From the IMG/VR virus record IMGVR_UViG_3300046804_003463, positions 13,033-77,032 of that record: a stretch of DNA of 64,000 bases; one strand, written 5' to 3'. Every line of letters begins with the position of its first letter. Within the stretch, counting starts at the first letter, position 1. This DNA is from a virus. Position numbers and translations under genes: made by a program. Below are positions 1 to 14,160 of this stretch, piece after piece. The notes beneath the pieces were generated by a model that was not told the DNA's origin, searched no databases, and worked only from the letters and a program-made list of their open reading frames with translations.

Positions 1-135
1 GGCAGTTTTTTCAAAGAATTTTTTCTCCTCTTTGGTCCATTCACGATGAAACCTTGCAAATAGAATTGGTGTAGGAAATAACCCTTGAATTGTTGGATCC
101 GGTATAATACTAATTGTGTTATTTTTCTTGCTCAT
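1..135 (-). CDS. Partial (runs off window) putative 2OG-Fe(II) oxygenase, TIGR02466-like
   Basis: Manually read ORF MSKKNNTISIIPDPTIQGLFPTPILFARF...; the LFPTPI N-terminal motif is typical of this phage family. Confidence 0.5.
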   Translation of the reverse strand, partial: MSKKNNTISIIPDPTIQGLFPTPILFARFHREWTKEEKKFFEKTA

Positions 136-244
136 TTTCATCCCTATCAATATCTAACCACAAATAACGTGCAGTGTCATCAATCACTCGTTGTGACCAC
201 ATCTCTTCATTTTCTAGTACAGGCACATCATATTCTGGTGCCAT
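119..244 (-). CDS. Small acidic hypothetical protein (41 aa)
   Basis: Manually read ORF MAPEYDVPVLENEEMWSQRV...; fills the gap in a tightly packed minus-strand run. Confidence 0.45.
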   Translation of the reverse strand: MAPEYDVPVLENEEMWSQRVIDDTARYLWLDIDRDENEQEK

Positions 245-251
245 CCAAGGC

Positions 252-476
252 TTATTTGTATTTGCTTTCAAAGTATTCATTTACTTTATATTTTGCTTCT
301 TCCATTGATTCTGCTATAACTTTTACCCATGCTATACCACCGGCAATTTCCATGTCAAATGGCACAGGACCATTAAACTCAAACTCTTCGGGTATATTGA
401 TTTGTACTTCATATTCTTCAAGATTGCGTATGCGATTCATCACCGCATCAAACTCGGCTCGTCGTGTCATAGTCAT
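252..476 (-). CDS. Hypothetical protein
   Basis: 74-aa ORF in the minus-strand gene run. Confidence 0.6.
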   Translation of the reverse strand: MTMTRRAEFDAVMNRIRNLEEYEVQINIPEEFEFNGPVPFDMEIAGGIAWVKVIAESMEEAKYKVNEYFESKYK

Positions 477-1338
477 CTCCTATCACTCCATTGTACACGA
501 CTCGTTTCACAGTGTCAACTCTGTGAGCAGAATTTCGTGCGCCCATCACAACAATTACCTCATGATAATCTTTTTCACCATTAACTTTGTGTACTAATAT
601 TGCCACGCAAAAGCCGGCAGGATTTGTGAAGCCTGTTTTACTTATTTGAACACCCTCTACTTGTGACAATATAGCGTTGTTTGTATTATGTAGAACTAAA
701 ACTCTATTCTTTCTTTTACCTGGCGTTTCAATCGTCGTAATCTTTTTGGTAGAAATGTTTCGTATTTCTGGATAATTTGCCGCTTCAACAACCATCTGTG
801 TTACATCACTGGCTGTGCTTACATTATATTTACTCAAGCCGGAAGGATCATCAAAACTTGTGTTGTACATGTCTAGCATCAATGCTTTTGAATTCATGTG
901 ATCCATAAAACGTCTACGACCACCGGGATAATCTGCCGCTAATGTTTCTGCTGCTGCATTGTCACTCTTGATTAGTAGCATATGAAACAATTCACCACGG
1001 GTATACTCAAGGCGTGGCATTTTACTGCCTGCATTTTTACTGAGTACAAGTTTACGATTCATATCACGATCATAGTCTAATGCAACCATAGCAGTCATGA
1101 GTTTGGTCATACTTGCCAATGCACGGACTTCATCAATGTTTTGTGCCCTTGTAATTGTGCCCTCAGTAATATTTGTGACCATTACCGATACAGTGCTATA
1201 AGTTTGCACTGTCTGCTGCTTTGCTTTCTTTTTCTTTTTAACTTTGTGTTTAGACTTGGCATCTGCGGTTGTTATCGTCAGAAAAAATAAAACAAAAAAT
1301 GTTACAAGCCACTGTGTGAGTGTAAGTTTCTTATTCAT
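448..1338 (-). CDS. D-alanyl-D-alanine endopeptidase/carboxypeptidase (peptidase S11, PBP7/PbpG-like)
   Basis: Signal peptide, Lys-rich linker, and SxxK (ASMTK), SxN (SDN) and KTG (KTGFT) motifs. Confidence 0.9.
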   Translation of the reverse strand: MNKKLTLTQWLVTFFVLFFLTITTADAKSKHKVKKKKKAKQQTVQTYSTVSVMVTNITEGTITRAQNIDEVRALASMTKLMTAMVALDYDRDMNRKLVLSKNAGSKMPRLEYTRGELFHMLLIKSDNAAAETLAADYPGGRRRFMDHMNSKALMLDMYNTSFDDPSGLSKYNVSTASDVTQMVVEAANYPEIRNISTKKITTIETPGKRKNRVLVLHNTNNAILSQVEGVQISKTGFTNPAGFCVAILVHKVNGEKDYHEVIVVMGARNSAHRVDTVKRVVYNGVIGDDYDTTSRV

Positions 1339-1427
1339 TTAGTGATTAGAAAAAAAATAAATGGTGAAATCATCACCATAAAGAATACAACGATGTAGAA
1401 TAGTAGATACCTGAACATTGAGTTCAT
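1335..1427 (-). CDS. Small hydrophobic membrane peptide (30 aa)
   Basis: Manually read ORF MNSMFRYLLFYIVVFFMVMISPFIFFLITK with upstream AAGGAG. Confidence 0.45.
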   Translation of the reverse strand: MNSMFRYLLFYIVVFFMVMISPFIFFLITK

Positions 1428-1450
1428 CGCCCTCTCCTTGGGCGACAAAC

Positions 1451-1693
1451 TTATTTCAGTTTATCACCCACTTGTTTGATTGTGTTTTCATAGCCTTCAC
1501 AAAGTTCCATGTAATATTGAACCTCATTCCACGCATGTAACAATTGAAATTTTGCCTCATATAATGTATTCGTCAGTGCTTTATATTTGTCTCTAGGACC
1601 ATTCTCAATAAGTGTTATCAAAATGTCAAGTTTATCGATGATTGTAACATCACCACCAACATCATCATCAAAACTATCCGGATCGTCTGTCAT
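1451..1693 (-). CDS. Hypothetical protein
   Basis: 80-aa ORF; start overlaps the upstream stop. Confidence 0.6.
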   Translation of the reverse strand: MTDDPDSFDDDVGGDVTIIDKLDILITLIENGPRDKYKALTNTLYEAKFQLLHAWNEVQYYMELCEGYENTIKQVGDKLK

Positions 1694-1860
1694 TTTTCGC
1701 CTTTTTCAAGCAGATTAATTGCATCTTTTGTAAATCTTATTTCTTTATTAAGTGTATCACGAATTTCATACAAATCAAGTAATCTTGCCCGCAAACGATT
1801 TAGTTCCACGTTTTCATCCGTGGTCTTTTGTTTGGGTGTAAATGTATATATCTCAGCCAT
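1690..1860 (-). CDS. Hypothetical coiled-coil protein (56 aa)
   Basis: Manually read ORF MAEIYTFTPKQKTTDENVELNRLRARLLDL...; directly after a sigma70-like promoter. Confidence 0.6.
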   Translation of the reverse strand: MAEIYTFTPKQKTTDENVELNRLRARLLDLYEIRDTLNKEIRFTKDAINLLEKGEK

Positions 1861-1866
1861 GAAAAG

Positions 1867-1895
1867 AGTTTATCATCATTGAGAATATTTGTCAA
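1867..1895 (-). promoter_or_regulatory. sigma70-type promoter TTGACA-N17-TAAACT, likely leaderless
   Basis: -35 at 1890-1895, -10 at 1867-1872; ATG 6 nt downstream. Confidence 0.6.
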
Positions 1896-2032
1896 TCGTT
1901 TGCATCATTTTCATCCATCAATGCCCACATGAATAGAAAACCTGCCATCGCTATTAATATGGCAAACATATCACCCATTTGCATACCCATTACGATTAAA
2001 AACAGAAACAATAAAAATATGAATATTTTCAT
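1892..2032 (-). CDS. Small membrane protein (46 aa)
   Basis: Manually read hydrophobic ORF MKIFIFLLFLFLIVMGMQMG... Confidence 0.5.
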   Translation of the reverse strand: MKIFIFLLFLFLIVMGMQMGDMFAILIAMAGFLFMWALMDENDAND

Positions 2033-2347
2033 TTACCACCTCTCTGCACGTTGCCATGTGTCATCGTAATCAGCGGCGTAATCGGTGACATCTGGAATGT
2101 TGACTGCAAAATCCTCTATGTCAGGCATGTGTATCTCTTCACCTTTTCTGTGTGCCGAAAGATATTTGCCTGCTTTTGCACGTGTTGCTGCACCTTCAGG
2201 TGTTTGATGATACTCTAATAGTTTTTTTGACCGTATCGCCTTGTCTTCTTCAGAATGTACACGAACATTACCACAAGACATGGAACAATATGGTCCACGT
2301 TTCTTGTGTGTTACTCCACATCTAGGACAGGTTTTTTCGGCGGGCAT
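2033..2347 (-). CDS. Hypothetical protein with N-terminal Cys cluster (possible Zn finger)
   Basis: CPRC...YCSMSC. Confidence 0.6.
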   Translation of the reverse strand: MPAEKTCPRCGVTHKKRGPYCSMSCGNVRVHSEEDKAIRSKKLLEYHQTPEGAATRAKAGKYLSAHRKGEEIHMPDIEDFAVNIPDVTDYAADYDDTWQRAERW

Positions 2348-2945
2348 TTTCTTCTAGTGTTTTCTCTATGTATTCACATAGCCAATGACCTAAAATCAAA
2401 TGACCTTCTTGTATGCGTGGTGTTGACGTTGATGGTATGGCAATGTAATAATCTGAGTAGTCATGCATCCATCTTGTTTTCATACCAGTAAATGCAACAT
2501 TGACTAGACCATTCATGTGGCCAAATTTCATTGCTTCAAGAATGTTTTCTGATAAACCTGAGGTTGAAAGATAGATTGCTACATCACCAGGATTTGAAAG
2601 TGCTTGTAGTTGTCTTGAAAAGATATGCTTGAAACCCAAATCATTACCAATTGCAGTGAGAATTGAGGTGTCAGTGTTCAAAGCAATAGCGGCATATGCA
2701 TCACTCTGTAAATTGAAATAAGAAACTAATTCACCAGCAAGATGTTGTGCTTCTGCTGCTGAACCACCATTGCCCATGAAAAATATTTTTTTATTGTTCA
2801 ACAAGGCACTCACACATGCCTGTGCAGCAATTTTAGTTTCTTCTAATGGATTTGGTATTGGATGTGAAGCAAACTCTAATGGTGCATCCGCCAACAAAGA
2901 ATCAATCACCGCTCTGGTGTCTTTCAAAGACTCATATATGTTCAT
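2322..2945 (-). CDS. gmhA: Phosphoheptose (sedoheptulose-7-phosphate) isomerase
   Basis: SIS-domain motifs GNGGSAAEAQH, TAIGND, STSG, TPRIQEGH. Confidence 0.93.
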   Translation of the reverse strand: MNIYESLKDTRAVIDSLLADAPLEFASHPIPNPLEETKIAAQACVSALLNNKKIFFMGNGGSAAEAQHLAGELVSYFNLQSDAYAAIALNTDTSILTAIGNDLGFKHIFSRQLQALSNPGDVAIYLSTSGLSENILEAMKFGHMNGLVNVAFTGMKTRWMHDYSDYYIAIPSTSTPRIQEGHLILGHWLCEYIEKTLEENARRKNLS

Positions 2946-2953
2946 AACGACCT

Positions 2954-3223
2954 CTATGCTGATTGAAAAATATCCTGCGCCCTACATGTGGTAATGAAAT
3001 TGATGAATGCTACTGCTTCACTTTCATCTTCATAATATCGTAGTATTGTTTGACCTGTGTACTTTGAAATAATCATGAGTAAGATATAGTGGTCACGGTA
3101 GGTGGAAAACTTTATCCACCAACCGTTTCTGACCACTGGTTGCCAAAACTTCGTCTTACCTTCTATATCAAGCCTTAGTTTCTTTGATTTCGGATTTGAT
3201 GATTTTTTTTGCATCTTCTGCAA
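2954..3223 (-). CDS. Hypothetical protein (start uncertain)
   Basis: 89-aa ORF whose 5' end overlaps the upstream gene. Confidence 0.5.
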   Translation of the reverse strand: MQKMQKKSSNPKSKKLRLDIEGKTKFWQPVVRNGWWIKFSTYRDHYILLMIISKYTGQTILRYYEDESEAVAFINFITTCRAQDIFQSA

Positions 3224-3419
3224 TGTTCTTATTCAGATTTACTACTTTCTTTGTATATGTAGTAAAAGTGTTTTCTGTAACACTGTCAAAATAGGCAATG
3301 GTGTGATCAACTAAAACTTTGTTGAAATCAATTGTTTTGATTGTTGCTTCTTCAGCCTTGCGCTGAATATCATTCCATGAGTAGAAAGTTGGAAATTGAG
3401 GTGCTTGTGTGAAAAACAT
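3168..3419 (-). CDS. Phasin-like (PHA granule-associated) small helical protein
   Basis: Amphipathic helical 83-aa ORF, strong SD (CAGGAG), own promoter overlapped by a PhaR-like TGCAnTGCA element. Confidence 0.45.
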   Translation of the reverse strand: MFFTQAPQFPTFYSWNDIQRKAEEATIKTIDFNKVLVDHTIAYFDSVTENTFTTYTKKVVNLNKNIAEDAKKIIKSEIKETKA

Positions 3420-3467
3420 AATTATCTCCTGTAAAAGTTAGACAGCCCACTTAGGCACTGTCATACC

Positions 3468-3499
3468 ATTATATAGTATTTTTATGATGCAGTGCAATA
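3468..3499 (-). promoter_or_regulatory. sigma70-type promoter TTGCAC-N18-TATAAT with an overlapping PhaR-like operator
   Basis: -10 at 3468-3473, -35 at 3492-3497; ATGATGCAGTGCAATA at 3484-3499. Confidence 0.55.
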
Positions 3500-3888
3500 G
3501 ATTTCAGGTGATCTTTGCGTATCTTCGCCGTGACCCAATCGTTATAGTAATTCTCACTCAGCAAGGCATGGCGTGACATTATCTCATACGTTTCAAAATA
3601 CGCACATTCAGATTTGCTTTTACACAAATGAAGAATTATTCTTCGGTAGTTACTTTCTCCGGTTGCTGCAACTTCCCTTTTGAGTGTGTCGTTGGAACCG
3701 TAATAGGTTTCCCAATCGGAAGGTTTTCGGATCTTTTTTTTCTTGCCGTTGATTTGTCTTGTGCCAGCCTGCGTAAAGTATTTGCGTCCAATATATTTTC
3801 TTCCTGTAGTGAGATTTTCTATTAGGTACACAAAGCCAAACGATGTGCCGTCATACTCATACGGCACACCATCATAATACCATGTCAT
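3469..3888 (-). CDS. denA: GIY-YIG endonuclease, T4 endonuclease II-like
   Basis: GFVYLIEN...KYIGRK and YYGS motifs. Confidence 0.75.
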   Translation of the reverse strand: MTWYYDGVPYEYDGTSFGFVYLIENLTTGRKYIGRKYFTQAGTRQINGKKKKIRKPSDWETYYGSNDTLKREVAATGESNYRRIILHLCKSKSECAYFETYEIMSRHALLSENYYNDWVTAKIRKDHLKSIALHHKNTI

Positions 3889-4061
3889 AGTGGTTCTTCA
3901 TCATCATCGTCATGAAGGTCCTCATCATCAAAACTTTCATCGTCAAGTATTAAATATTCTCCGCAAAACGGACAATGTGTTGGGTCTGATTCTGTGTGCA
4001 TCTCATTGTAAGAGATGGCAAATTCAGAGCCACATGCTGTGCATTCATGTTGTATTCTCAT
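3885..4061 (-). CDS. Small zinc-ribbon protein with acidic tail (58 aa)
   Basis: Manually read ORF MRIQHECTACGSEF...HCPFCGEY...DDEEPL. Confidence 0.65.
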   Translation of the reverse strand: MRIQHECTACGSEFAISYNEMHTESDPTHCPFCGEYLILDDESFDDEDLHDDDDEEPL

Positions 4062-4063
4062 AA

Positions 4064-4498
4064 TTAATTACACCAAGATTGTTTTGCCTCACCAAAATAT
4101 TCACGTGCAAGGCCATTTTGAATTAACATTGAACGAAGACTTTGACCGTCTAGAACGATGTCTCCCAATACACGACCACCAAATTTATCCCAGTCATAGA
4201 GTATCACTTGACGCTTAGATGATTTAGCAACTGCATTGGTTGTAAATTTTGTTGCCAATTTTCCTCTTTCATCCTCCTGTGGACATTTAGCACGAAAGCC
4301 TTTTTCTGGTGTATCTACACCATAAATGCGAACAGCAAGTTCAGGCTTCAGTGGTGCAGGTAAAAATGGCGCTGCAATCACTACAGTGTCACCGTCATTT
4401 ACACGGACAATTTGTGCATCATACATCACGCCTTGTGGTGCTTTTTGTGCCAATGCCAGTGACGGCAATAGCATAATCATTAACAGCAATTTTTTCAT
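4064..4498 (-). CDS. Secreted thermonuclease (staphylococcal nuclease-like)
   Basis: Signal peptide; DGDT, RIYGVDTPE and DKFGGRVL motifs. Confidence 0.88.
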   Translation of the reverse strand: MKKLLLMIMLLPSLALAQKAPQGVMYDAQIVRVNDGDTVVIAAPFLPAPLKPELAVRIYGVDTPEKGFRAKCPQEDERGKLATKFTTNAVAKSSKRQVILYDWDKFGGRVLGDIVLDGQSLRSMLIQNGLAREYFGEAKQSWCN

Positions 4499-4968
4499 AT
4501 TGATTCCTTACAAACGAGATTGAGAATATCAAAGCGTGTGGTGTGCGGCACATTCAAACTAACGATGTTTGAATTGACTTCATATGAGTTGCGAAAAACT
4601 ACTTTATTATTTGCATCAACATACAAATCCATAAGCATCATGAGTTGTTTTCTACCACAGTGCAATGAACCAAATACATACAATGCACTCACAGGAACAT
4701 CTACGCCATAAAATTCTTGTGGAACATGATATGGCACATATGCGTGAAAACTAACAATTTCTTGTTTAGCGCCGACTGTGCTTTTCTCAATGTATATATC
4801 ATAACCATCGGACTGAGTTACAAAATGCCAGTCGTTTTGATTGTGGATGATTTTATCATCGTTTGTGAAGTTAAGCCGGTATTCCGACTCTTCTGCATTT
4901 ACCGAAAAGGCTAAAAGTGCTGCAATGACAAAAGAAAATAGGTGCTTCATGGGATCCCCCCGAAACAC
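4495..4968 (-). CDS. Secreted/periplasmic hypothetical protein (probable start MKHLF at 4950)
   Basis: Signal peptide ending in VNA-E. Confidence 0.65.
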   Translation of the reverse strand: MFRGDPMKHLFSFVIAALLAFSVNAEESEYRLNFTNDDKIIHNQNDWHFVTQSDGYDIYIEKSTVGAKQEIVSFHAYVPYHVPQEFYGVDVPVSALYVFGSLHCGRKQLMMLMDLYVDANNKVVFRNSYEVNSNIVSLNVPHTTRFDILNLVCKESI

Positions 4969-4984
4969 CTATTTAGAACACAAA

Positions 4985-5695
4985 TCAACTCCAGTATTTA
5001 CTGTTGTCCAATTTATCCCAATACTTTTGATTATTACGATTTATGAAGTTTTTGATCAAATACCAACCCATACCAAAGTACCCCATTTTCTTGAATCTAC
5101 GGGAATCTTGACCAAAATAATGATTTAGTATTTTAAACTTTTTAGGTTCATACATTCTTGAAAGGAAATAATCTTCAGATGTAGAAAACCTTTCATTGAA
5201 GCCCCCAAACGCATCAAACTTACTCTTACGGGTTAGCATGAAGGCACCCACAGCAAACGGAGAAAAATGTTTCAAAATTTGATTGATTTTATTGAAAATA
5301 AAAAACCCAAGTTCCGCTTTCCAATCATCTTCGTAACATCTAATATTTGCTCCAATCAAATCTAAATCGTTCTGTTCAATCTCAAAAACAGCATCACGAA
5401 TCATATAATTATCAAAAAATATCACATCAGCATCTATGAACAAAATATATGGTGTGGTGACTAATTTTGCGGCATTGTTTCGTGCCACAGCAACAGGACC
5501 ACCATCAATGATTTCAATATTCAGAAAAGCACGATTGTTTCTAATTACATCTCTGGTGTTGTCAGTTGAACAGTCAGCAATAATAATTCTAGTGTCACCT
5601 ATCTTCTGTTGACGTAAAGAATTAAGCAAATGATTTATGTAATTTTCTTCATTTTTGCTTGGAATAACAATTGTGATTTTATCGCTTAGTTTCAT
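4985..5695 (-). CDS. Glycosyltransferase family 2
   Basis: IVIPSKNEE, DCSTD, DAD (DxD) and ED motifs. Confidence 0.9.
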   Translation of the reverse strand: MKLSDKITIVIPSKNEENYINHLLNSLRQQKIGDTRIIIADCSTDNTRDVIRNNRAFLNIEIIDGGPVAVARNNAAKLVTTPYILFIDADVIFFDNYMIRDAVFEIEQNDLDLIGANIRCYEDDWKAELGFFIFNKINQILKHFSPFAVGAFMLTRKSKFDAFGGFNERFSTSEDYFLSRMYEPKKFKILNHYFGQDSRRFKKMGYFGMGWYLIKNFINRNNQKYWDKLDNSKYWS

Positions 5696-5864
5696 CTTTC
5701 CTCACGCACTTTCCCTCAATCTTAAAATTGTCAAACTTTAACCAATACGTCATAGACTGTAAAGTTTGTTCACATTGTTGTTGTGTATCAAATTGTAGAT
5801 TTATTCTTCCCGGTATGTCGTTTGAATTGTTCAGATGTACCGCTATCAATATCATCAACCACAT
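5679..5864 (-). CDS. Small hypothetical protein
   Basis: 61-aa ORF with hydrophobic N-terminus and two Cys. Confidence 0.5.
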   Translation of the reverse strand: MWLMILIAVHLNNSNDIPGRINLQFDTQQQCEQTLQSMTYWLKFDNFKIEGKCVRKDETKR

Positions 5865-6615
5865 TATCGCTCTCCTGTGTCCATGTGATTATTTCCCATC
5901 TACCATCATGGTGTTCAACAAGTGCTGTCATTGATTCTACCCAGTCACCGTCATTCATATACATTACACCATCAATTTTTTTTATTTCTGCTTGATGTAT
6001 ATGACCACAAATCACACCGTCAAATCCTTTTTTCTTACAATATGCCGCTAAATTACTTTCAAATTGAAATATGAAATCAACTGCTTTTTTTACCTTGCGC
6101 TTAAGGAAACGACTAAGACTAAAATAACCAACACCCATTCTATGGAGGATCCAATTGAATTTACTATTGAAAGATAAAATGGTGTCATACGCTTTGTCTC
6201 CTAGTATTGCTAGCCACGGAGCAAGTCTAGTAATACCGTCAAAAAAGTCTCCGTGAATAACAAGATAGTGTTTACCATCAGCACCAATGTGTTCTATTTG
6301 ATTATGCATTTCAATCATACCAAAATTTAAATTATATTGTAAATATGGTCTAAGAAATTCATCATGATTACCTAACACATATACCACTCTTGTATTTCTT
6401 TTTGCGTGTCCTAATATACGTCTTACCACATTTGTGTGACTTTGTTTCCAGCGCCATTTATTTTGTTTTATTTTCCAAGCATCAATTATATCACCAACAA
6501 GATAAAGTGTTTCACACGAATTATTTTTGAGAAAATTGTTTAGTGCTTCAGCCTTACAATCTTTCGTTCCAAGGTGAACGTCTGAAATGAAAATACTACG
6601 ATATTTTTTGTCCAT
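5788..6615 (-). CDS. plcP: LpxH2/PlcP-type metallophosphoesterase (putative phospholipase C)
   Basis: SDVHLG, GDIID, GNHD, HGD and CGHIH motifs plus YMNDGDWVESMTALVEH, matching the PlcP/LpxH2 subfamily; lies in the pstS run. Confidence 0.78.
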   Translation of the reverse strand: MDKKYRSIFISDVHLGTKDCKAEALNNFLKNNSCETLYLVGDIIDAWKIKQNKWRWKQSHTNVVRRILGHAKRNTRVVYVLGNHDEFLRPYLQYNLNFGMIEMHNQIEHIGADGKHYLVIHGDFFDGITRLAPWLAILGDKAYDTILSFNSKFNWILHRMGVGYFSLSRFLKRKVKKAVDFIFQFESNLAAYCKKKGFDGVICGHIHQAEIKKIDGVMYMNDGDWVESMTALVEHHDGRWEIITWTQESDNVVDDIDSGTSEQFKRHTGKNKSTI

Positions 6616-6676
6616 TGAAATACTGGTTACGGGTCCAGTGTCACCTGATAGTTGTGACCGATTTTTTTATTTTGTT

Positions 6677-8083
6677 TTAGAAGTTCAACTGGCTTCTGAA
6701 CATGACTGCTTGATCACCTTTTACACGACTGCCCGATGCACCAACTAATTGATCAAACTTTGTATCAACATAATTTACCATAAAACGTAGATTGTCGGTA
6801 GCAAACCATGTGATGCCATATGTCATAGCAGTAGCACGATTTGATTTGCCAGCCGCTACTACGATAGGACTTGCATCAAACTCACTCATACGTACACCAA
6901 CTTGCCATGCACCACGGCCACCTTTGTCTAAAGAATTGTTAGGTTTAATTGCACCAAACACACCGTCTTTATAATTGTATGATTCACCAGTAATATTATA
7001 AGTTGCTAAAACATAATACCCTTTAATTTCTTGATTTACACCAACAGCAGGATCATAAACGAATTCAAATTGTTCACCTTGTATTTTAAAGGCATTATAT
7101 GCTATTGCTGCTTCAAGACCTTGGCGTGTTCTAGTTGTCAAACCACTTAGAGCAGGGCCGGTAAACCAAGCATTTTGAGACCTTGATTCTGTTCTTGCAC
7201 TTGATGGTGTAACTCCACCTTTAATTTCACCTGTACTATATGCAGCACCCAAATGTGCGACATATGCTTTGCTGCCAGTGAGTTCAGCAATGTTTGTGGT
7301 TACACGACCAATGTAATCAAGACTATCTGCTACGACATCTTTGTTACCACGACCACGACTGACTGCGGCTGCATAGGTCAATCCTGTTGTCGGCACACCA
7401 TGAATCATAAAGCCTGTTTCTTTTGCAGGAATAAATTCACCTTCAACTTGACCAATCAGACTACGTTCCATCATATCAATATTGTTGGAACTTTGTAGTT
7501 GCTCTAAACTAAATGGCATTTTGAACAAACCAAACTGAAATTGCATTTCAGGATTGGCTGCATAGTTTACCCATCCTACATCTAAATTTGTTGTTGATGA
7601 TGCTGCGCCAACATCATTACCAAAATTACCCACAAATTCATATTTGAAGTCTTTAGCAAACTGTCCACGAACACCAAATCTAGCACGACGAACTTCTGCT
7701 AAGTTTTGATACGAATCCGTGGTTTGACCGACAGCATAATTCGGTGAGTAGTGTCGATAGTCCATATGTAATCGACCTGTAAATTGTGCTGTGTTGTTTC
7801 CATCTTTGCTTTTGAGTCCAATTCCATTTTCGGTGACTGAACCATCATTTGCTCTGGCTTGTCTCCACTTGTTGTTGTCGCTAACATCTTTGTCAATTCT
7901 TTGCTCGGCAAATTTTTTGTTTTCTTCTCTTTCTTCATATGCTTTGAGTTTTGTTTCATATTCTTGTTGAGTGATTACATTCTTCTCTCTTAGAATGTTC
8001 AATGTTTCTTTATACTCATCAGCATATGCAGGAATTGCCGCTGCTAGTGCAATTACGATAGAAAGTTTTTTAAATAGTTTCAT
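6677..8083 (-). CDS. Phosphate-selective outer-membrane porin (OprO/OprP family)
   Basis: Signal peptide, RRARFG, GLFKMPFSLEQL, C-terminal Phe; adjacent to pstS. Confidence 0.88.
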   Translation of the reverse strand: MKLFKKLSIVIALAAAIPAYADEYKETLNILREKNVITQQEYETKLKAYEEREENKKFAEQRIDKDVSDNNKWRQARANDGSVTENGIGLKSKDGNNTAQFTGRLHMDYRHYSPNYAVGQTTDSYQNLAEVRRARFGVRGQFAKDFKYEFVGNFGNDVGAASSTTNLDVGWVNYAANPEMQFQFGLFKMPFSLEQLQSSNNIDMMERSLIGQVEGEFIPAKETGFMIHGVPTTGLTYAAAVSRGRGNKDVVADSLDYIGRVTTNIAELTGSKAYVAHLGAAYSTGEIKGGVTPSSARTESRSQNAWFTGPALSGLTTRTRQGLEAAIAYNAFKIQGEQFEFVYDPAVGVNQEIKGYYVLATYNITGESYNYKDGVFGAIKPNNSLDKGGRGAWQVGVRMSEFDASPIVVAAGKSNRATAMTYGITWFATDNLRFMVNYVDTKFDQLVGASGSRVKGDQAVMFRSQLNF

Positions 8084-8092
8084 GATTTATCC

Positions 8093-9115
8093 TTATTTCC
8101 AAATTGAGTTACCGTCAGGACCTTTTAGATCCTTGCGCCAGTTGTCTTGTACAAGTTTAACCACATCGGCAGGCATATGAACATACTCTAATTCTTCACT
8201 CATTTTGCCACCGTTTTTGTAAGACCAGTCAAAGAACTTGAGAACTGCACGGCCTGTCAATGCATCTGCTTGTTGCTTGTGCATCAAAATAAAACTTGCG
8301 CCTGTTGCTGGCCATGCATCTTTACCTGTTTGCCATGTCAGCAATAGATACATGCCTGGTGCATTTGCCCAATCTGCATTTGCTGCCGCTGTTTTGAATG
8401 TAGAATCATCAGGTAATACAAAGTTACCATCACGATTCTTTAGTGACGCATAAGGAATCTTATTGCGTTTTGCATATGCATATTCAACATAACCAAATGC
8501 ACCTTTCAGTCTTTGTACTTGTGCTGCTACACCCTCATTACCTTTACCACCTACACCTGTTGGCCATTTTACTGCTGTGCCTTCACCGACTACTTTTGCA
8601 AATTCAGGATTTGCTTTACCAAGAAAGTTTGTCCAGATGAATGTGGTGCCTGAACCATCTGCACGATGAATAACTGTGATTGGTATTGCAGGTAGATTTA
8701 TACCAGGATTCAAATCGGTGATTGCTTTGTCATTCCACTTTGTAATTTTACCAAGATGAATGTTTGCGACTACATCTGGTGTCAGTTTCAGTTTGCCTGA
8801 CTCAATGCCATCAAGGTTGAATACTGGTACTACACCACCGATGATTGCTGGAAACTGCATTAGACCTTCTTTGTCTAATTCCTCTTTCTTCAATGGCATA
8901 TCAGATGCGCCAAAATCAACTGTCTTGGCTTTGATTTGACGAATGCCACCACCCGAACCGATTGATTGATAGTTTAGACCAATGCCAGTTTGTGCTTTAT
9001 ATGCTTCAGCCCACTTTGCATAGATTGGAAATGGAAAAGTCGCACCGGCTCCAGTAAATTCTGCTGCTGATGCGACTCCTGTGAATAGCAATAATGATAG
9101 TAAAAACTTCTTCAT
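8093..9115 (-). CDS. pstS: Phosphate ABC transporter periplasmic binding protein
   Basis: GAGATFP, GSGGG, DFGASD, RADGSGTT and GKGNEGV motifs. Confidence 0.96.
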   Translation of the reverse strand: MKKFLLSLLLFTGVASAAEFTGAGATFPFPIYAKWAEAYKAQTGIGLNYQSIGSGGGIRQIKAKTVDFGASDMPLKKEELDKEGLMQFPAIIGGVVPVFNLDGIESGKLKLTPDVVANIHLGKITKWNDKAITDLNPGINLPAIPITVIHRADGSGTTFIWTNFLGKANPEFAKVVGEGTAVKWPTGVGGKGNEGVAAQVQRLKGAFGYVEYAYAKRNKIPYASLKNRDGNFVLPDDSTFKTAAANADWANAPGMYLLLTWQTGKDAWPATGASFILMHKQQADALTGRAVLKFFDWSYKNGGKMSEELEYVHMPADVVKLVQDNWRKDLKGPDGNSIWK

Positions 9116-9152
9116 ATTATCTCCTTTGAGTTAGACTACTAAAATAGTTCTG

Positions 9153-9171
9153 TGTAACGGATCCGTCACAA
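9153..9171 (-). promoter_or_regulatory. Pho-box-like, near-palindromic element upstream of pstS
   Basis: TTGTGAC-GGAT-CCGTTAC: two GTnAC half-sites 11 bp apart. Confidence 0.4.
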
Positions 9172-9219
9172 TTTAGAATTTTTTTTAATAGTCTGACCGC
9201 CGAAGACAATCAGACTTTA

Positions 9220-9227
9220 TATTTAGT
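9220..9227 (-). promoter_or_regulatory. T4-late-type promoter candidate (ACTAAATA)
   Basis: Variant of TATAAATA directly after the nrdB stop; the same octamer occurs in tandem at 28147-28161. Confidence 0.45.
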
Positions 9228-9228
9228 A

Positions 9229-10221
9229 TTACGCTGCTTTACCCCAAACAGTTTCCCAATTGCCTGTCAATGCACCTTTTGAATAATCTGTTGCACGATT
9301 CTCAAAAAAGTTTGTGTGTGTTGGTGCATTGATCATCTCTTCAACCCATGGAAGCGGATTCTTTTTAACCTTGAATACACCCTTGAGACCCAGACTAATG
9401 AGGCGACGATCAGCAATGTAGCGTATGTAAAGTTTAACGTCATCAGCAGATAGACCAGACATGTCACCCATATTAAAAGCAAGATCAATAAACTTATCTT
9501 CAAGTTCAACCATTTTTTCAGCAATAGTATAAATTTTTGATTTAAGGTCGTCATTCCATATCTGCTTATTTTCTTCAATATAGGTTCGGAATAATTTAAT
9601 CATAGACTCAGCGTGTTGTGTTTCATCCACGATTGACCAAGTAATAATCTGACCCATGCCTCTCATTTTACCTTGGCGTGGGAAGTTAAGTAGCATGATA
9701 AAGGAACTGAATAGTTGCATCCCTTCGGTGAAAGCAGAGAATACTGCAATATGAGCAGCAGTAGAAGCCCTATCGCCATTCTGTGTGCTAATACCAAGAA
9801 TATAATCGTGTTTTGAACGCATTTCGTCATATTCCATAAACTCCGTGTATGTGGTGTCTGGCATACCAAGTGTTTCAATTAGATGTGAGTATGCTGCGAT
9901 GTGTAATGCTTCACGTGCTGCAAAACCTAACAGCATCATTCTTACTTCAGGTTGAGGGAAATAAGGTAGGTAATTATTAACATAGCCACCCGCAACATCA
10001 ATGTCACCCTGAGTAAAAAATCTGAATATATGAGTAAGAAAATTCTTTTCGTCTTTCGTAAGTTTATTCTTCCAATCCTTAACATCTTCAAGCATTGGAA
10101 CTTCCGTGTGAAGCCAGTGACTCTGTTCATGTTTGAGCCAACTTTCGTATGCCCAAGGATATGCAAATGGTTTGAATGATGTTCTTTCGTCTGTTAGTTT
10201 TGTATCTTGCTTTTTAATCAT
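9229..10221 (-). CDS. nrdB: Ribonucleotide reductase class Ia beta subunit
   Basis: EALH and DETQH di-iron motifs; NFFENRATDY tail. Confidence 0.96.
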   Translation of the reverse strand: MIKKQDTKLTDERTSFKPFAYPWAYESWLKHEQSHWLHTEVPMLEDVKDWKNKLTKDEKNFLTHIFRFFTQGDIDVAGGYVNNYLPYFPQPEVRMMLLGFAAREALHIAAYSHLIETLGMPDTTYTEFMEYDEMRSKHDYILGISTQNGDRASTAAHIAVFSAFTEGMQLFSSFIMLLNFPRQGKMRGMGQIITWSIVDETQHAESMIKLFRTYIEENKQIWNDDLKSKIYTIAEKMVELEDKFIDLAFNMGDMSGLSADDVKLYIRYIADRRLISLGLKGVFKVKKNPLPWVEEMINAPTHTNFFENRATDYSKGALTGNWETVWGKAA

Positions 10222-12366: not shown

Positions 12367-14160
12367 TTAGCCCTCACATGCTAAACAGACCTCCTCGGTA
12401 GCCAGTTGCTTCAAATCAATTTCTTGAATGATTTCTCGTTCAATCTTTTTGGATACTTTGTCAGCCTTTGCTAGTTTTTCTGAACGACAGTAGTACAATG
12501 TTTTAAGTCCTTGCTTCCATGCTTGAAAGTGTACTGCATGAAGGTATTTAACATTTACATCAGGTCTAAAAAAGAGGTTAATGGATTGCGCCTGGTCAAT
12601 GTAATGCTGTCTGTCAGCGGCGTGGTCCACAACCCATCTTTGGTCAATTTCCATACCAGTTTTGTAGACATCTTTGGTGTAGTCATCCAGGAAATCCAAG
12701 TGCTGGACGGAACCGTCGTTTGCAATGATACTTGACCAGATTTCTTGATAATCCAATTTGCTGTCTGCATTACATTTCTCCTGAATAATTTTATCTAGAA
12801 ATTTATTCTTGTTTAGAAAAGCGCCTGAAAGAGTGTCTTGTCTATAAGCATTAGCACGGTAAGGCTCAACGGAGGGACTAGTATTGCCCATAATAATGGA
12901 AGATGAAGCATTAGGAGCAATGGCAAGCATATGGCTAAACCTTTTACCTGTACCAACAGCATCAGGAGCCTCACCTCTTTCTTTTCCGAGTTCGTAATTT
13001 GCATCATCTAATCTCTCACGAATATGTTTGAATACTTGATTGTTCAGTGACTTTGCTACTGCTGATTCGAACGCCACATTTTTCTTCTGTAGAAGAGCAT
13101 GATAGCCAAGAGCCCCCACGCCAATGCTGCGCTCTTGTTGAGCAGAGAACCTGGCTCTGTGTATAGCATCAGGAGCATTGTCAATAAAATACTGAAGTAC
13201 ATTATCAAGCATTTCCGCCACGTCCCGCAGAAAAAGTTTATCATTTTTCCAATCATCATAATACTCCAAGTTTACAGACGAAAGACAGCAAACTGCTGTG
13301 CGTTGTTTATCTGTAGGTAAAATAATTTCACTGCAAAGATTTGATTGTTTGATGCTCAGGCCTTTTTCTTTCTGAAACTCTGGCATCAAACGATTTGATG
13401 TGTCAATGAAATGAATGTATGGTTCACCAGTGAGCATACGTGTTTCAAGTATGCGTTGCCACAATTCACGTGCCGATATTTTATCTTTGACTTCACCTGA
13501 GTGTGGGTCTTTGAGTTCCCATGTATCATCAGCATCATGGTCAAGCATACATTTTTCAATCAGTTGCATAAAGTCATCGGTGATGTTGATGCCATGATGC
13601 AGATTTAGTGTACGCAGATTAGGATCACCAGTTGGCTTTCTCATCTCTAAGAAATTGATAATATCAGGATGAGAAATGTCAAGATAAGCAGCATAAGAGC
13701 CACGCCTTGTACGACCTTGTCTATATGCCAATGAAGATGCATCGTAAGTACGTAAGTGAGGCATAATACCAACGGACTTATCGTCAGCAGAACGAATTCC
13801 CAAGCCGATTCCAACACCACCTCCCAACATTGATAACCAATTTACTTCCGAAAGAGTATTGACCAAACCTTCCGCTGAATCATCCAAATAGGGTAGAAAA
13901 CAACTGATAGGCAGACCACGCTTACTGCGGCCAAAAGATAAGATAGGAGTAGAATAAGAAAGCCAGTGCTTACTAGAATAATCGTAAAGCCTTTGAGCAT
14001 GATCAGGATTGGATGCAAAGGCTGCGGATACGAATGCGAATCTTTCTTGTGGGCTTGTTTCGTCCTCACGCATGTACGATTCTCTAAGTCTTTTAATTCC
14101 GAGTTCATCAAATAAGTTATCCCTTGTATAGTCTATTGTAATGCTGCTCTTATCTACCAT
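12367..14160 (-). CDS. nrdA: Ribonucleotide reductase class Ia alpha subunit (short, no ATP cone apparent)
   Basis: ISCF, SNLCSEI, APNASSS, KTLYY and C-terminal CLAC. Confidence 0.96.
   Translation of the reverse strand: MVDKSSITIDYTRDNLFDELGIKRLRESYMREDETSPQERFAFVSAAFASNPDHAQRLYDYSSKHWLSYSTPILSFGRSKRGLPISCFLPYLDDSAEGLVNTLSEVNWLSMLGGGVGIGLGIRSADDKSVGIMPHLRTYDASSLAYRQGRTRRGSYAAYLDISHPDIINFLEMRKPTGDPNLRTLNLHHGINITDDFMQLIEKCMLDHDADDTWELKDPHSGEVKDKISARELWQRILETRMLTGEPYIHFIDTSNRLMPEFQKEKGLSIKQSNLCSEIILPTDKQRTAVCCLSSVNLEYYDDWKNDKLFLRDVAEMLDNVLQYFIDNAPDAIHRARFSAQQERSIGVGALGYHALLQKKNVAFESAVAKSLNNQVFKHIRERLDDANYELGKERGEAPDAVGTGKRFSHMLAIAPNASSSIIMGNTSPSVEPYRANAYRQDTLSGAFLNKNKFLDKIIQEKCNADSKLDYQEIWSSIIANDGSVQHLDFLDDYTKDVYKTGMEIDQRWVVDHAADRQHYIDQAQSINLFFRPDVNVKYLHAVHFQAWKQGLKTLYYCRSEKLAKADKVSKKIEREIIQEIDLKQLATEEVCLACEG

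Follow-up and report, generated by a model that had tools for sequence, protein, structure and literature searches.

Here we describe a run of seven genes in a 64-kb stretch of virus DNA (positions 13,033 to 77,032 of IMG/VR record IMGVR_UViG_3300046804_003463; hereafter the window). They lie directly after nrdB and include genes for the phosphate-binding protein PstS, an OprO/P-family porin, a PlcP-like metallophosphoesterase and a family 2 glycosyltransferase (GT2). We found that the run consists of three units, pstS-porin, plcP-(s61)-GT2 and o157-SNase, which are inherited apart and are stacked in this genome. In the explanation that we consider best, and to which we give a probability of roughly 0.6, a phosphate-uptake operon (pstS-porin) and a lipid-renovation cassette (plcP-GT2) have been juxtaposed with the probably unrelated pair o157-SNase in the variable region of a T4-like phage. 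A preliminary description of the same DNA had listed pstS, the porin gene, a PlcP-like gene, a small open reading frame (ORF), GT2, a secreted protein and a nuclease as contiguous on one strand after nrdB. This is correct for every item, and hidden Markov model (HMM) searches bore out its family assignments (NF008171, PF07396, Metallophos, PF00535 and PF00565). In the order in which they are read, the genes are:

9229-10221, minus strand: nrdB (PF00268, 255 bits)

8093-9115, minus strand: pstS (NF008171, TIGR00975, phrog_5385), with a signal peptide

6677-8083, minus strand: OprO/P-family porin (PF07396), with a signal peptide and an N-terminal extension of about 60 residues

5788-6615, minus strand: PlcP-like metallophosphoesterase, a putative cytoplasmic phospholipase C (Metallophos, 48.8 bits)

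5679-5864, minus strand: s61, a small ORF of 56-61 aa with conserved homologues, which overlaps the plcP tail and the GT2 start

4985-5695, minus strand: GT2 glycosyltransferase with a GT-A fold (PF00535, 76.1 bits; PF13506)

4495-4968, minus strand, with a likelier start at ATG 4950: o157, secreted and Adhesin_E-like (signal peptide; sub-cut-off match to PF16747)

4064-4498, minus strand: staphylococcal-type nuclease (SNase) with a signal peptide (PF00565, phrog_452)

From pstS to SNase, successive genes are joined by spacers of 9 and 61 nt, two overlaps, a 16-nt spacer and a further overlap. A cleavable signal peptide can be recognised on four of the proteins (PstS, the porin, o157 and SNase) but not on PlcP or GT2.

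The division into three units comes from a synteny comparison of 160 related viral loci. Half of these were fetched from the 114 confirmed relatives found by a porin-seeded scan of the viral collection, and half from the at least 497 viral relatives found by a GT2-seeded scan (69 of these 80 had enough upstream sequence to be informative). The pstS gene adjoins the porin gene in all 80 porin loci. In the same loci plcP, s61 and GT2 are present 20, 16 and 18 times, respectively; they come and go as a block, which is placed exactly between the porin gene and o157/SNase or elsewhere. Seen from GT2, plcP lies directly upstream in 69/69 informative loci, across many contexts and in some cases on contigs of 229-525 kb, and most of the 80 GT2 loci have neither pstS nor porin nearby. 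The cassette plcP-(s61)-GT2 is thus an optional mobile element, present at a minority of porin loci and elsewhere mostly found without pstS or porin, and the single contiguous module of the preliminary description is not supported. The third unit goes with the phage backbone: SNase (45/80 porin loci), o157 (28/80), a zinc-ribbon gene (43/80) and segE (45/80). Across loci SNase tracks the zinc-ribbon gene and segE but not pstS, porin or plcP. Both SNase and o157 are absent where pstS-porin occupies other contexts (L036, L050-52, L060 and others), and two loci (L135 and L136) carry nrdB-plcP-s61-GT2-o157-SNase with neither pstS nor porin. The link to nrdB is a property of this lineage only (43/80).

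Within the first unit, PstS scored 421.9 bits against NF008171, an E. coli-type equivalog (cut-off 339), and 377 bits against TIGR00975 (cut-off 205); its signal peptide ends in ...GVASA. The closest cellular relatives of PstS are from Burkholderiales (Oxalobacteraceae and Burkholderiaceae, 65-76% identity), which indicates a betaproteobacterial host, and the host is probably a freshwater member of that order. The porin matched PF07396 (Porin_O_P) with 150.8 bits (cut-off 20.9) over profile positions 3-349 of 370. Like Pseudomonas aeruginosa OprP and OprO (2o4v, 4rjw) it belongs to this Pfam family, aligns over the whole barrel (residues 84-461, E=8.8e-16 with 2o4v) and keeps eight residue equivalents (OprP R34, R59, R60, K74, D94, S124, S125 and R133). 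It differs from them in its N-terminal extension, in a best phmmer score of only 61 bits, and in three substitutions, Y62 to R, K121 to Q and K126 to N. The central phosphate-binding residues of OprP are D94, Y62, S124, S125, K121, K126, R34 and R133 (PMC5877670); five of these eight (R34, D94, S124, S125 and R133) are kept, and all mapped OprP-site positions are invariant in 47 distinct phage copies. This conservation supports the prediction that the porin is a functional anion channel of the OprO/P family.

Among phages the porin is 72-85% identical. Of 301 sampled Burkholderiales genomes, 52 had a match, none above 46% identity (two of the 52, the unpublished G028 and G296, gave weak matches and are used for this count alone); since even the best of the 301 reached no more than this, no donor was identified. 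An exact-peptide scan of the genome collection gave no match, and neither did a protein search of 50,697 GenBank phage records. High identity among phages, low identity to cellular homologues and the empty GenBank search together make the porin look like an old gene that phages have maintained. In cellular betaproteobacterial pstS loci, this porin was found within 4 kb of pstS in none of 80. As judged from these sequences, the idea that PstS and the porin would together raise phosphate import during infection, drawing on the external-phosphate pool, is supported.

The second unit starts with the PlcP-like protein (275 aa). Across 22 sequences from phages and cells, its metal motifs D12xH14, G41D42, G82N83H84D85, H121 and G204H205xH207 do not vary, and the third metallophosphoesterase motif reads GNHD/E across the alignment. 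In Acetobacteraceae, where the homologue is 50-54% identical, the next gene encodes a GT4 Agt-like protein and the stop and start codons overlap; this pair is a canonical plcP-agt operon (PMC4796936, PMC8528852). The cellular Agt-like neighbour at locus L090 has the GT4 domains PF13439 and PF00534. An Undibacterium homologue sits beside ppk and pstSCAB-phoU, and plcP lies within 4 kb of pstS in 8/80 betaproteobacterial pstS loci. With orthologues in plcP-glycosyltransferase operons or phosphorus-stress loci, the phage protein is probably a PlcP, that is, a putative phospholipase C. Close homologues are found on contigs as long as 367 kb. In Undibacterium curvum (L287, positions 129-8603), the PlcP homologue, a histidine phosphatase, ppk and pstSCAB-phoU make up one phosphorus-homeostasis neighbourhood.

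Its partner GT2 (236 aa) passes the PF00535 cut-off of 23.3 bits by a wide margin (76.1 bits) and also matches PF13506 (GT21) over residues 79-188 only (30.4 bits, cut-off 21.7). GT21 is the domain of Pgt-type processive diacylglycerol glycosyltransferases, such as those of M. loti and A. tumefaciens. D88xD90 and E174-D175 are invariant in 27 sequences. An AlphaFold2 model with a mean predicted local distance difference test (pLDDT) score of 91.2 has a GT-A fold, and Foldseek matched it with probability 1.00 to TarS, TarP and PcManGT; the template modelling (TM) score to a membrane mannosyltransferase was 0.72. We considered whether the protein could be an Agt, which would be a GT4 enzyme with a GT-B fold (PF13439, PF00534), and rejected this, as only GT2-type domains were found and the model is GT-A. 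The C-terminus is rich in basic and aromatic residues and may be a membrane-interface segment. We propose that GT2 is a diacylglycerol glycosyltransferase that acts with PlcP. Such a role, which the preliminary description did not consider, likely makes the plcP cassette one of lipid renovation rather than of mere phospholipid breakdown.

The same pair is found in cells. Single-cell genomes of SAR86 have a GT2-PlcP operon with overlapping genes (57-60% identity for GT2 and 46% for PlcP), divergent from the alkaline phosphatase PhoX and surrounded by ordinary cellular genes, and GT2 and PlcP are also paired in UBA1459 and in metagenome-assembled genomes (MAGs) of Methanobacterium and Pacearchaeota; in cellular pairs the two genes occur in either order. 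The published PlcP neighbourhood table lists SAR86C without a recognised lipid gene nearby, and the GT2 partner of PlcP therefore appears uncharacterised. The SAR86 GT2-PlcP pair is a candidate for an uncharacterised lipid-renovation locus. Its GT2/PhoX spacer was too AT-rich for a Pho box to be called. At about 4995-6432 in the SAR86 loci L216-L218 and L227, GT2-PlcP lies among genes for a TonB receptor, a cyclopropane-fatty-acid synthase-like protein and an FMO-like protein.

The small ORF s61 is a real gene and an optional member of the cassette. Its 16 homologues share an invariant N-terminus and two invariant cysteines, and its ratio of nonsynonymous to synonymous polymorphism (pN/pS) is about 0.24 in its overlapping and free parts alike. 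At 5788-5864 on the minus strand of the window, plcP and s61 overlap in different frames, the former with its final 25 codons and the latter with its first 26. The plcP tail varies in length among relatives (263-294 aa) and the N-terminus of s61 does not, so selection on the overlap seems to act on s61. No family match to s61 was found in Pfam, PHROGs or NCBIfam, and it does not resemble the small ORF that follows plcP in pelagimyophage Mosig (see below). Its AlphaFold2 model, a beta-beta-alpha-beta arrangement with a pLDDT of 63, was too weak for a structure search.

Both phosphorus units have host-type regulatory sites upstream in many lineages. We scored upstream regions with a Pho-box weight matrix built from 39 cellular betaproteobacterial pstS sites (threshold 10 bits; background 0.007 per 130 nt). 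Of 48 distinct regions ahead of phage pstS, 39 have a site at or above the threshold (19 forward, 20 reverse), as do 23 of the 57 distinct regions ahead of plcP (22 forward). A PhoB-dependent promoter is expected to have two 7-nt direct repeats with an 11-bp period, placed in the coding orientation some 10 bp ahead of a -10 element. The upstream alignment has a direct repeat, TTGTAAC-N4-TTGTCAT/TTGTAAT, 10-12 nt upstream of a TAAATA element; in plcP cassettes elsewhere the repeat often stands right after a terminator hairpin, giving the cassette its own terminator and a forward Pho box. The pattern TGTMAY-N5-TGTMAY matches 74 times on both strands of the 1.88 Mb of viral loci. Of these matches, 61 fall on the coding strand within 110 nt upstream of pstS or plcP, with about 0.03 expected upstream of each gene; because the loci are not independent, this count is to be read as an enrichment and not as a p-value. 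In 33 of the 80 cellular betaproteobacterial loci the same pattern precedes pstS by 65-131 nt. PhoB control of the pstS-porin and plcP family is thus a well-supported prediction from upstream motifs, and that of this window's copy is uncertain. The preliminary description had three phosphorus pools being targeted together. Two of them are supported, namely external phosphate, through the constant pstS-porin pairing and its Pho-box sites, and membrane phospholipid, through the constant plcP-GT2 pairing, the forward Pho boxes and the cellular relatives in phosphorus-stress loci; the nuclease pool is not supported, as SNase travels with the backbone.

The following elements were mapped in the window:

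9152-9170, plus strand: Pho-box-class site GTGTAAC-GGAT-CCGTCAC, a near-palindrome 38-56 nt upstream of the pstS ATG

9220-9226, minus strand: CTAAATA late-promoter-like motif, directly after the nrdB stop and upstream of pstS

9190-9216, minus strand: UUCG-loop hairpin of 11-12 bp, between CTAAATA and the Pho-box-like site

6623-6662, minus strand: 40-nt element ATCGGTCAC-N9-GGTGAC-CTGGA-N-CCGTAACCAG, in the porin-plcP spacer

4970-4976, minus strand: CTAAATA late-type motif, 19 nt upstream of the o157 ATG (4950)

The site at 9152-9170 scored 17.4 bits, the highest in the 64 kb (the runner-up scored 9.7), and is kept at 17-18 bits in the window's lineage. We rejected a CRP-type reading of this palindrome, since its half-site spacing is 8 and not 6. 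All six copies of CTAAATA in the window are on the coding strand, the two mapped copies are intergenic, and no 7-mers are commoner ahead of phage pstS than TAAATAT/CTAAATA; we infer that CTAAATA is a T4-type late promoter. The hairpin at 9190-9216 is kept in the lineage with wobble-compatible changes. An A-run follows it and no U-tract does, and we rejected it as a classical terminator on that ground; it may be an RNA stability or processing element.

The 40-nt element stands in place of the terminator and Pho box of other lineages. It precedes plcP wherever the cassette has no Pho box of its own, including at L172, where there is no porin ahead. Among 11 distinct sequences its blocks are invariant and its loops variable; the putative stems being invariant, covariation gives no test of them. 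Compared with the pstS site, it has similar half-sites that stand 3 nt further apart, and it had no match in Rfam, where a scan gave only chance snoRNA-like hits. In plcP loci with a forward box (for example L145, L166, L173 and L182), only 4-8 nt separate the end of TAAATA from the ATG, with no visible Shine-Dalgarno sequence, and plcP transcripts of such cassettes may have little or no leader. A terminator scan found no terminator-like site on the coding strand from 10600 to 3300, and a generic sigma-70 and terminator scan showed no enrichment.

We propose the following mechanism. PstS would act as an added periplasmic phosphate-binding protein that hands phosphate to host PstCAB, and the porin as an anion-selective OprO/P-type channel in the outer membrane that, with PstS, would raise phosphate import. 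In most lineages pstS-porin would come under host PhoB control through the host-type Pho box ahead of it. PlcP would cut the phospho-head group from host glycerophospholipids to leave diacylglycerol, which GT2 would glycosylate to a phosphorus-free glycolipid, so that the membrane would stay intact while the freed lipid phosphorus would feed phage nucleotide synthesis. The cassette in the window, with neither promoter nor terminator of its own, appears to have been inserted behind the porin gene and is presumably transcribed by read-through from the pstS promoter. The proteins o157 and SNase would be late secreted proteins of the backbone. In this account the gene identities, the linkage patterns, the enrichment of motifs and the conserved catalytic residues are observed, and PhoB control, phospholipase C activity, diacylglycerol as the acceptor of GT2 and co-transcription are predicted.

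Several points weigh against this explanation. The viral loci are not independent samples, and many of them are near-duplicates. The porin lacks OprP K121 and K126, and phosphate specificity is therefore not assured. In the orientation of pstS the site at 9152-9170 scores only 7.5 bits, its best match being on the opposite strand, and because it reads best in this opposite direction, activation of the window's copy by PhoB is doubtful; plcP in the window itself lacks a Pho box, with 4.8 bits as its best forward score. For the cassette, the fold matches of GT2 are generic GT-A enzymes, the characterised Agt, a GT4, is not a homologue of GT2, and several cellular GT2 relatives with 35-41% identity have no PlcP nearby.

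Turning to o157 and SNase, the latter scored 40.1 bits against PF00565 (cut-off 21) and, aligned to 4h7b, has equivalents of all six Ca-binding and catalytic residues of staphylococcal nuclease (D21, R35, D40, T41, E43 and R87). The o157 protein matched the full-length PF16747 (Adhesin_E) profile with 20.6 bits, below the cut-off of 23.7; its Atlas neighbours carry Adhesin_E with a score of 0.91, and its relatives fall into two divergent types (68-99% or 29-37% identity). These features bear on the proposal that all seven genes form one co-transcribed module serving three pools, in which SNase, helped by o157, would degrade periplasmic or extracellular nucleic acid and the phosphate would enter through the porin and PstS. 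Extracellular nucleases are Pho-regulated in some bacteria, such as Xds and Dns of Vibrio cholerae. The shared strand, the tiny gaps and the stretch free of terminator-like sites agree with such a module, as do the signal peptide and intact active site of SNase and its position downstream of pstS-porin in more than half of the porin loci (45/80). Set against this, SNase and o157 stay with the zinc-ribbon gene, segE and o83 with or without the plcP cassette or pstS-porin (as at L135 and L136), and they are missing where pstS-porin lies in other contexts. They also have a separate CTAAATA before o157, the weight-matrix scan of the 64-kb window found no Pho-box-class site near them, and no phosphatase that would release phosphate from periplasmic nucleotides is encoded here. 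We consider the three-pool module unlikely. The two genes are backbone genes behind their own late-type motif, tied to phosphorus only by position, and the secreted SNase is probably unrelated to the phosphorus genes.

A less likely proposal again is that the PlcP-like protein and GT2 remodel the envelope for a reason other than phosphorus, for instance by altering lipid A or lipopolysaccharide (LPS) or by changing a surface glycan so as to block superinfection, with the porin as a replacement or decoy outer-membrane protein. Phage-encoded general porins do exist, for example Lc and NmpC of lambdoid phages. The PlcP-like family is publicly annotated as LpxH and its nearest solved structures are LpxH, and GT2 has weak matches (E about 5e-5) to GtrB-like PHROGs of O-antigen conversion. 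The LpxH equivalogs were nevertheless far missed (NF003743, 45.6 bits against a cut-off of 134; TIGR01854, 34 against 190), the LpxH structures have GNRD where the phage protein has GNHD, and the match to LpxH reaches only 21 bits over the N-terminal half; by its sequence, the PlcP-like protein is not LpxH. Envelope remodelling also fits poorly with the Pho boxes ahead of many cassettes, with cellular relatives beside PhoX, ppk-pstSCAB-phoU or Agt, and with a porin that is never apart from pstS.

In a further suggestion, mis-assembly or mis-binning has attached a fragment of the host chromosome to phage DNA; the preliminary description had named a chimera of this kind as what would undo its reading. 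The suggestion draws on the similarity of PstS to Burkholderiales proteins and on related contigs in bacterial MAGs (L082, L083 and L213-L215), but it is effectively refuted by the uniform GC content (0.36-0.40), by dozens of independent viral contigs, some of them 155-223 kb long, in which the genes from nrdB to the phage backbone keep this order, by a porin far closer to its phage than to its Burkholderiales homologues and not found near cellular pstS, and by the phage gene o213 on MAG contig L082. The five MAG contigs are filed under Polynucleobacter, Fischerella, Haliscomenobacter, Crocinitomicaceae and a gammaproteobacterium. They carry phage-type plcP (52-82% identity) and, except for L083, GT2 (67-69%), with o213 in addition on L082; they are probably phage contigs that were binned into bacterial MAGs.

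The juxtaposition of an uptake operon and a lipid-renovation cassette can be compared with known systems. Phage pstS is a textbook auxiliary gene, and Zeng and Chisholm are said to have reported in 2012 that cyanophage pstS (and phoA) is under host PhoR/PhoB control. Cyanophage PstS integrates into host PstCAB (bioRxiv 10.1101/2021.07.20.453049). As with cyanophage pstS, we see a T4-like phage, a host-derived periplasmic PstS without pstCAB and host-type Pho boxes upstream, and the presumed purpose is the same, more phosphate uptake in phosphorus-starved infected hosts. In contrast to the cyanophage case, the donor and the type of Pho box are betaproteobacterial, the box is inverted in this lineage, and pstS is always in an operon with an outer-membrane porin. 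Neither phoA nor phoH, nor amoC, was found on the contig, which is only about 45% complete.

A gene of the phosphate-selective porin family is known from other freshwater betaproteobacterial phages: oprP has been described as a host-derived auxiliary gene of large freshwater amoC-phages of Betaproteobacteria in a June 2026 preprint, whose text does not mention pstS and in which oprP groups closely with Nitrosomonadaceae hosts (bioRxiv 10.64898/2026.06.18.733297). The porin described here differs in its distance from sampled cellular homologues (at most 46% identity), in always following pstS and in the lack of amoC on the contig. In the open-access literature, this preprint was the only report of phage oprP that we found.

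Lipid renovation by PlcP and Agt is known from Sinorhizobium meliloti, Phaeobacter MED193, SAR11 HTCC7211, P. aeruginosa (PA3219/PA3218) and Burkholderia cenocepacia (PMC4796936, PMC8528852, PMC13691135, PMC9239053). The phage cassette shares with these an LpxH-like metallophosphoesterase paired with a glycosyltransferase, linked Pho-regulon genes and, in many lineages though not in the window, a Pho box ahead. It differs in being viral, in having a 236-aa GT-A GT2 as partner in place of a GT-B GT4, and in often having s61 inserted. We found no open-access paper on viral PlcP or on plcP together with auxiliary metabolic genes (AMGs); viral 'lpxH' appears as an LPS gene in KEGG-based auxiliary-gene lists. 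A PlcP-like gene under the name LpxH is present in the cultured Synechococcus phage S-SRM01. The cultured pelagimyophage Mosig EXVC030M (MT647606) likewise has a PlcP-like gene (49% identity) beside pstS, annotated 'putative UDP-2,3-diacylglucosamine hydrolase' and not discussed in the genome announcement. Unlike in the window, pstS and plcP are divergent in Mosig and there is no GT2 and no porin. In the spacer between them (L358, positions 3345-3494), (T/C)TTAACA recurs every 11 bp, as in TTTAACA-AAAA-CTTAACA, and ATAAATA immediately precedes the start codon of plcP; these TTAACA repeats may be a SAR11-type Pho box.

As for the surroundings of the run, the window makes up the final 64 kb of an IMG/VR virus record of 77 kb, for which the completeness given above is an estimate, and nearly all of its genes are on the minus strand. 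The backbone is T4-like, with a gp43-type DNA polymerase, a gp46/SbcC-like nuclease subunit, a primase and nrdA/nrdB; a DNA-level search of GenBank phages showed similarity in nrdB only. At 3469-4061 on the minus strand, a SegE-type GIY-YIG homing endonuclease gene (PF19835, 110 bits) and the zinc-ribbon gene, which encodes 58 aa, flank the variable region. A homing endonuclease beside a hotspot of cassette gain and loss may aid the spread of neighbouring genes.

The valuable part of these results is not the run of seven genes but the two separately inherited units, which have host-type Pho boxes in many lineages. Until now the recognised phosphorus genes of phages have been pstS, phoH and phoA, chiefly from marine cyanophages. 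For viruses, the plcP-GT2 cassette of lipid renovation appears not to have been described before, and its type of glycosyltransferase appears not yet to have been characterised in cells. More broadly, and at a little under even odds, hundreds of probably freshwater phages may carry a self-contained, PhoB-controlled cassette that converts phospholipid to glycolipid by means of a GT2 diacylglycerol glycosyltransferase unrelated to the known Agt, and the same module may be an unrecognised pathway in SAR86 and in some archaeal and Candidate Phyla Radiation (CPR) lineages; together with pstS-porin, it would amount to a takeover of the host Pho regulon in two of its arms, uptake and membrane sparing, by which these phages would meet the cost of their DNA. 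If this is true, two more parts of the bacterial response to phosphate starvation are carried by lake phages, namely an outer-membrane channel for phosphate, coupled to pstS, and membrane lipid renovation. The GT2 partner of PlcP is a candidate for a new class of glycolipid synthase and would fill the SAR86 blank in the PlcP neighbourhood survey. Lipid renovation could make a sizeable part of the cell's phosphorus available for virus DNA without breaking the cell open before lysis, which would change estimates of how viruses affect the phosphorus cycle and the lipid biomarkers of waters limited by phosphorus.

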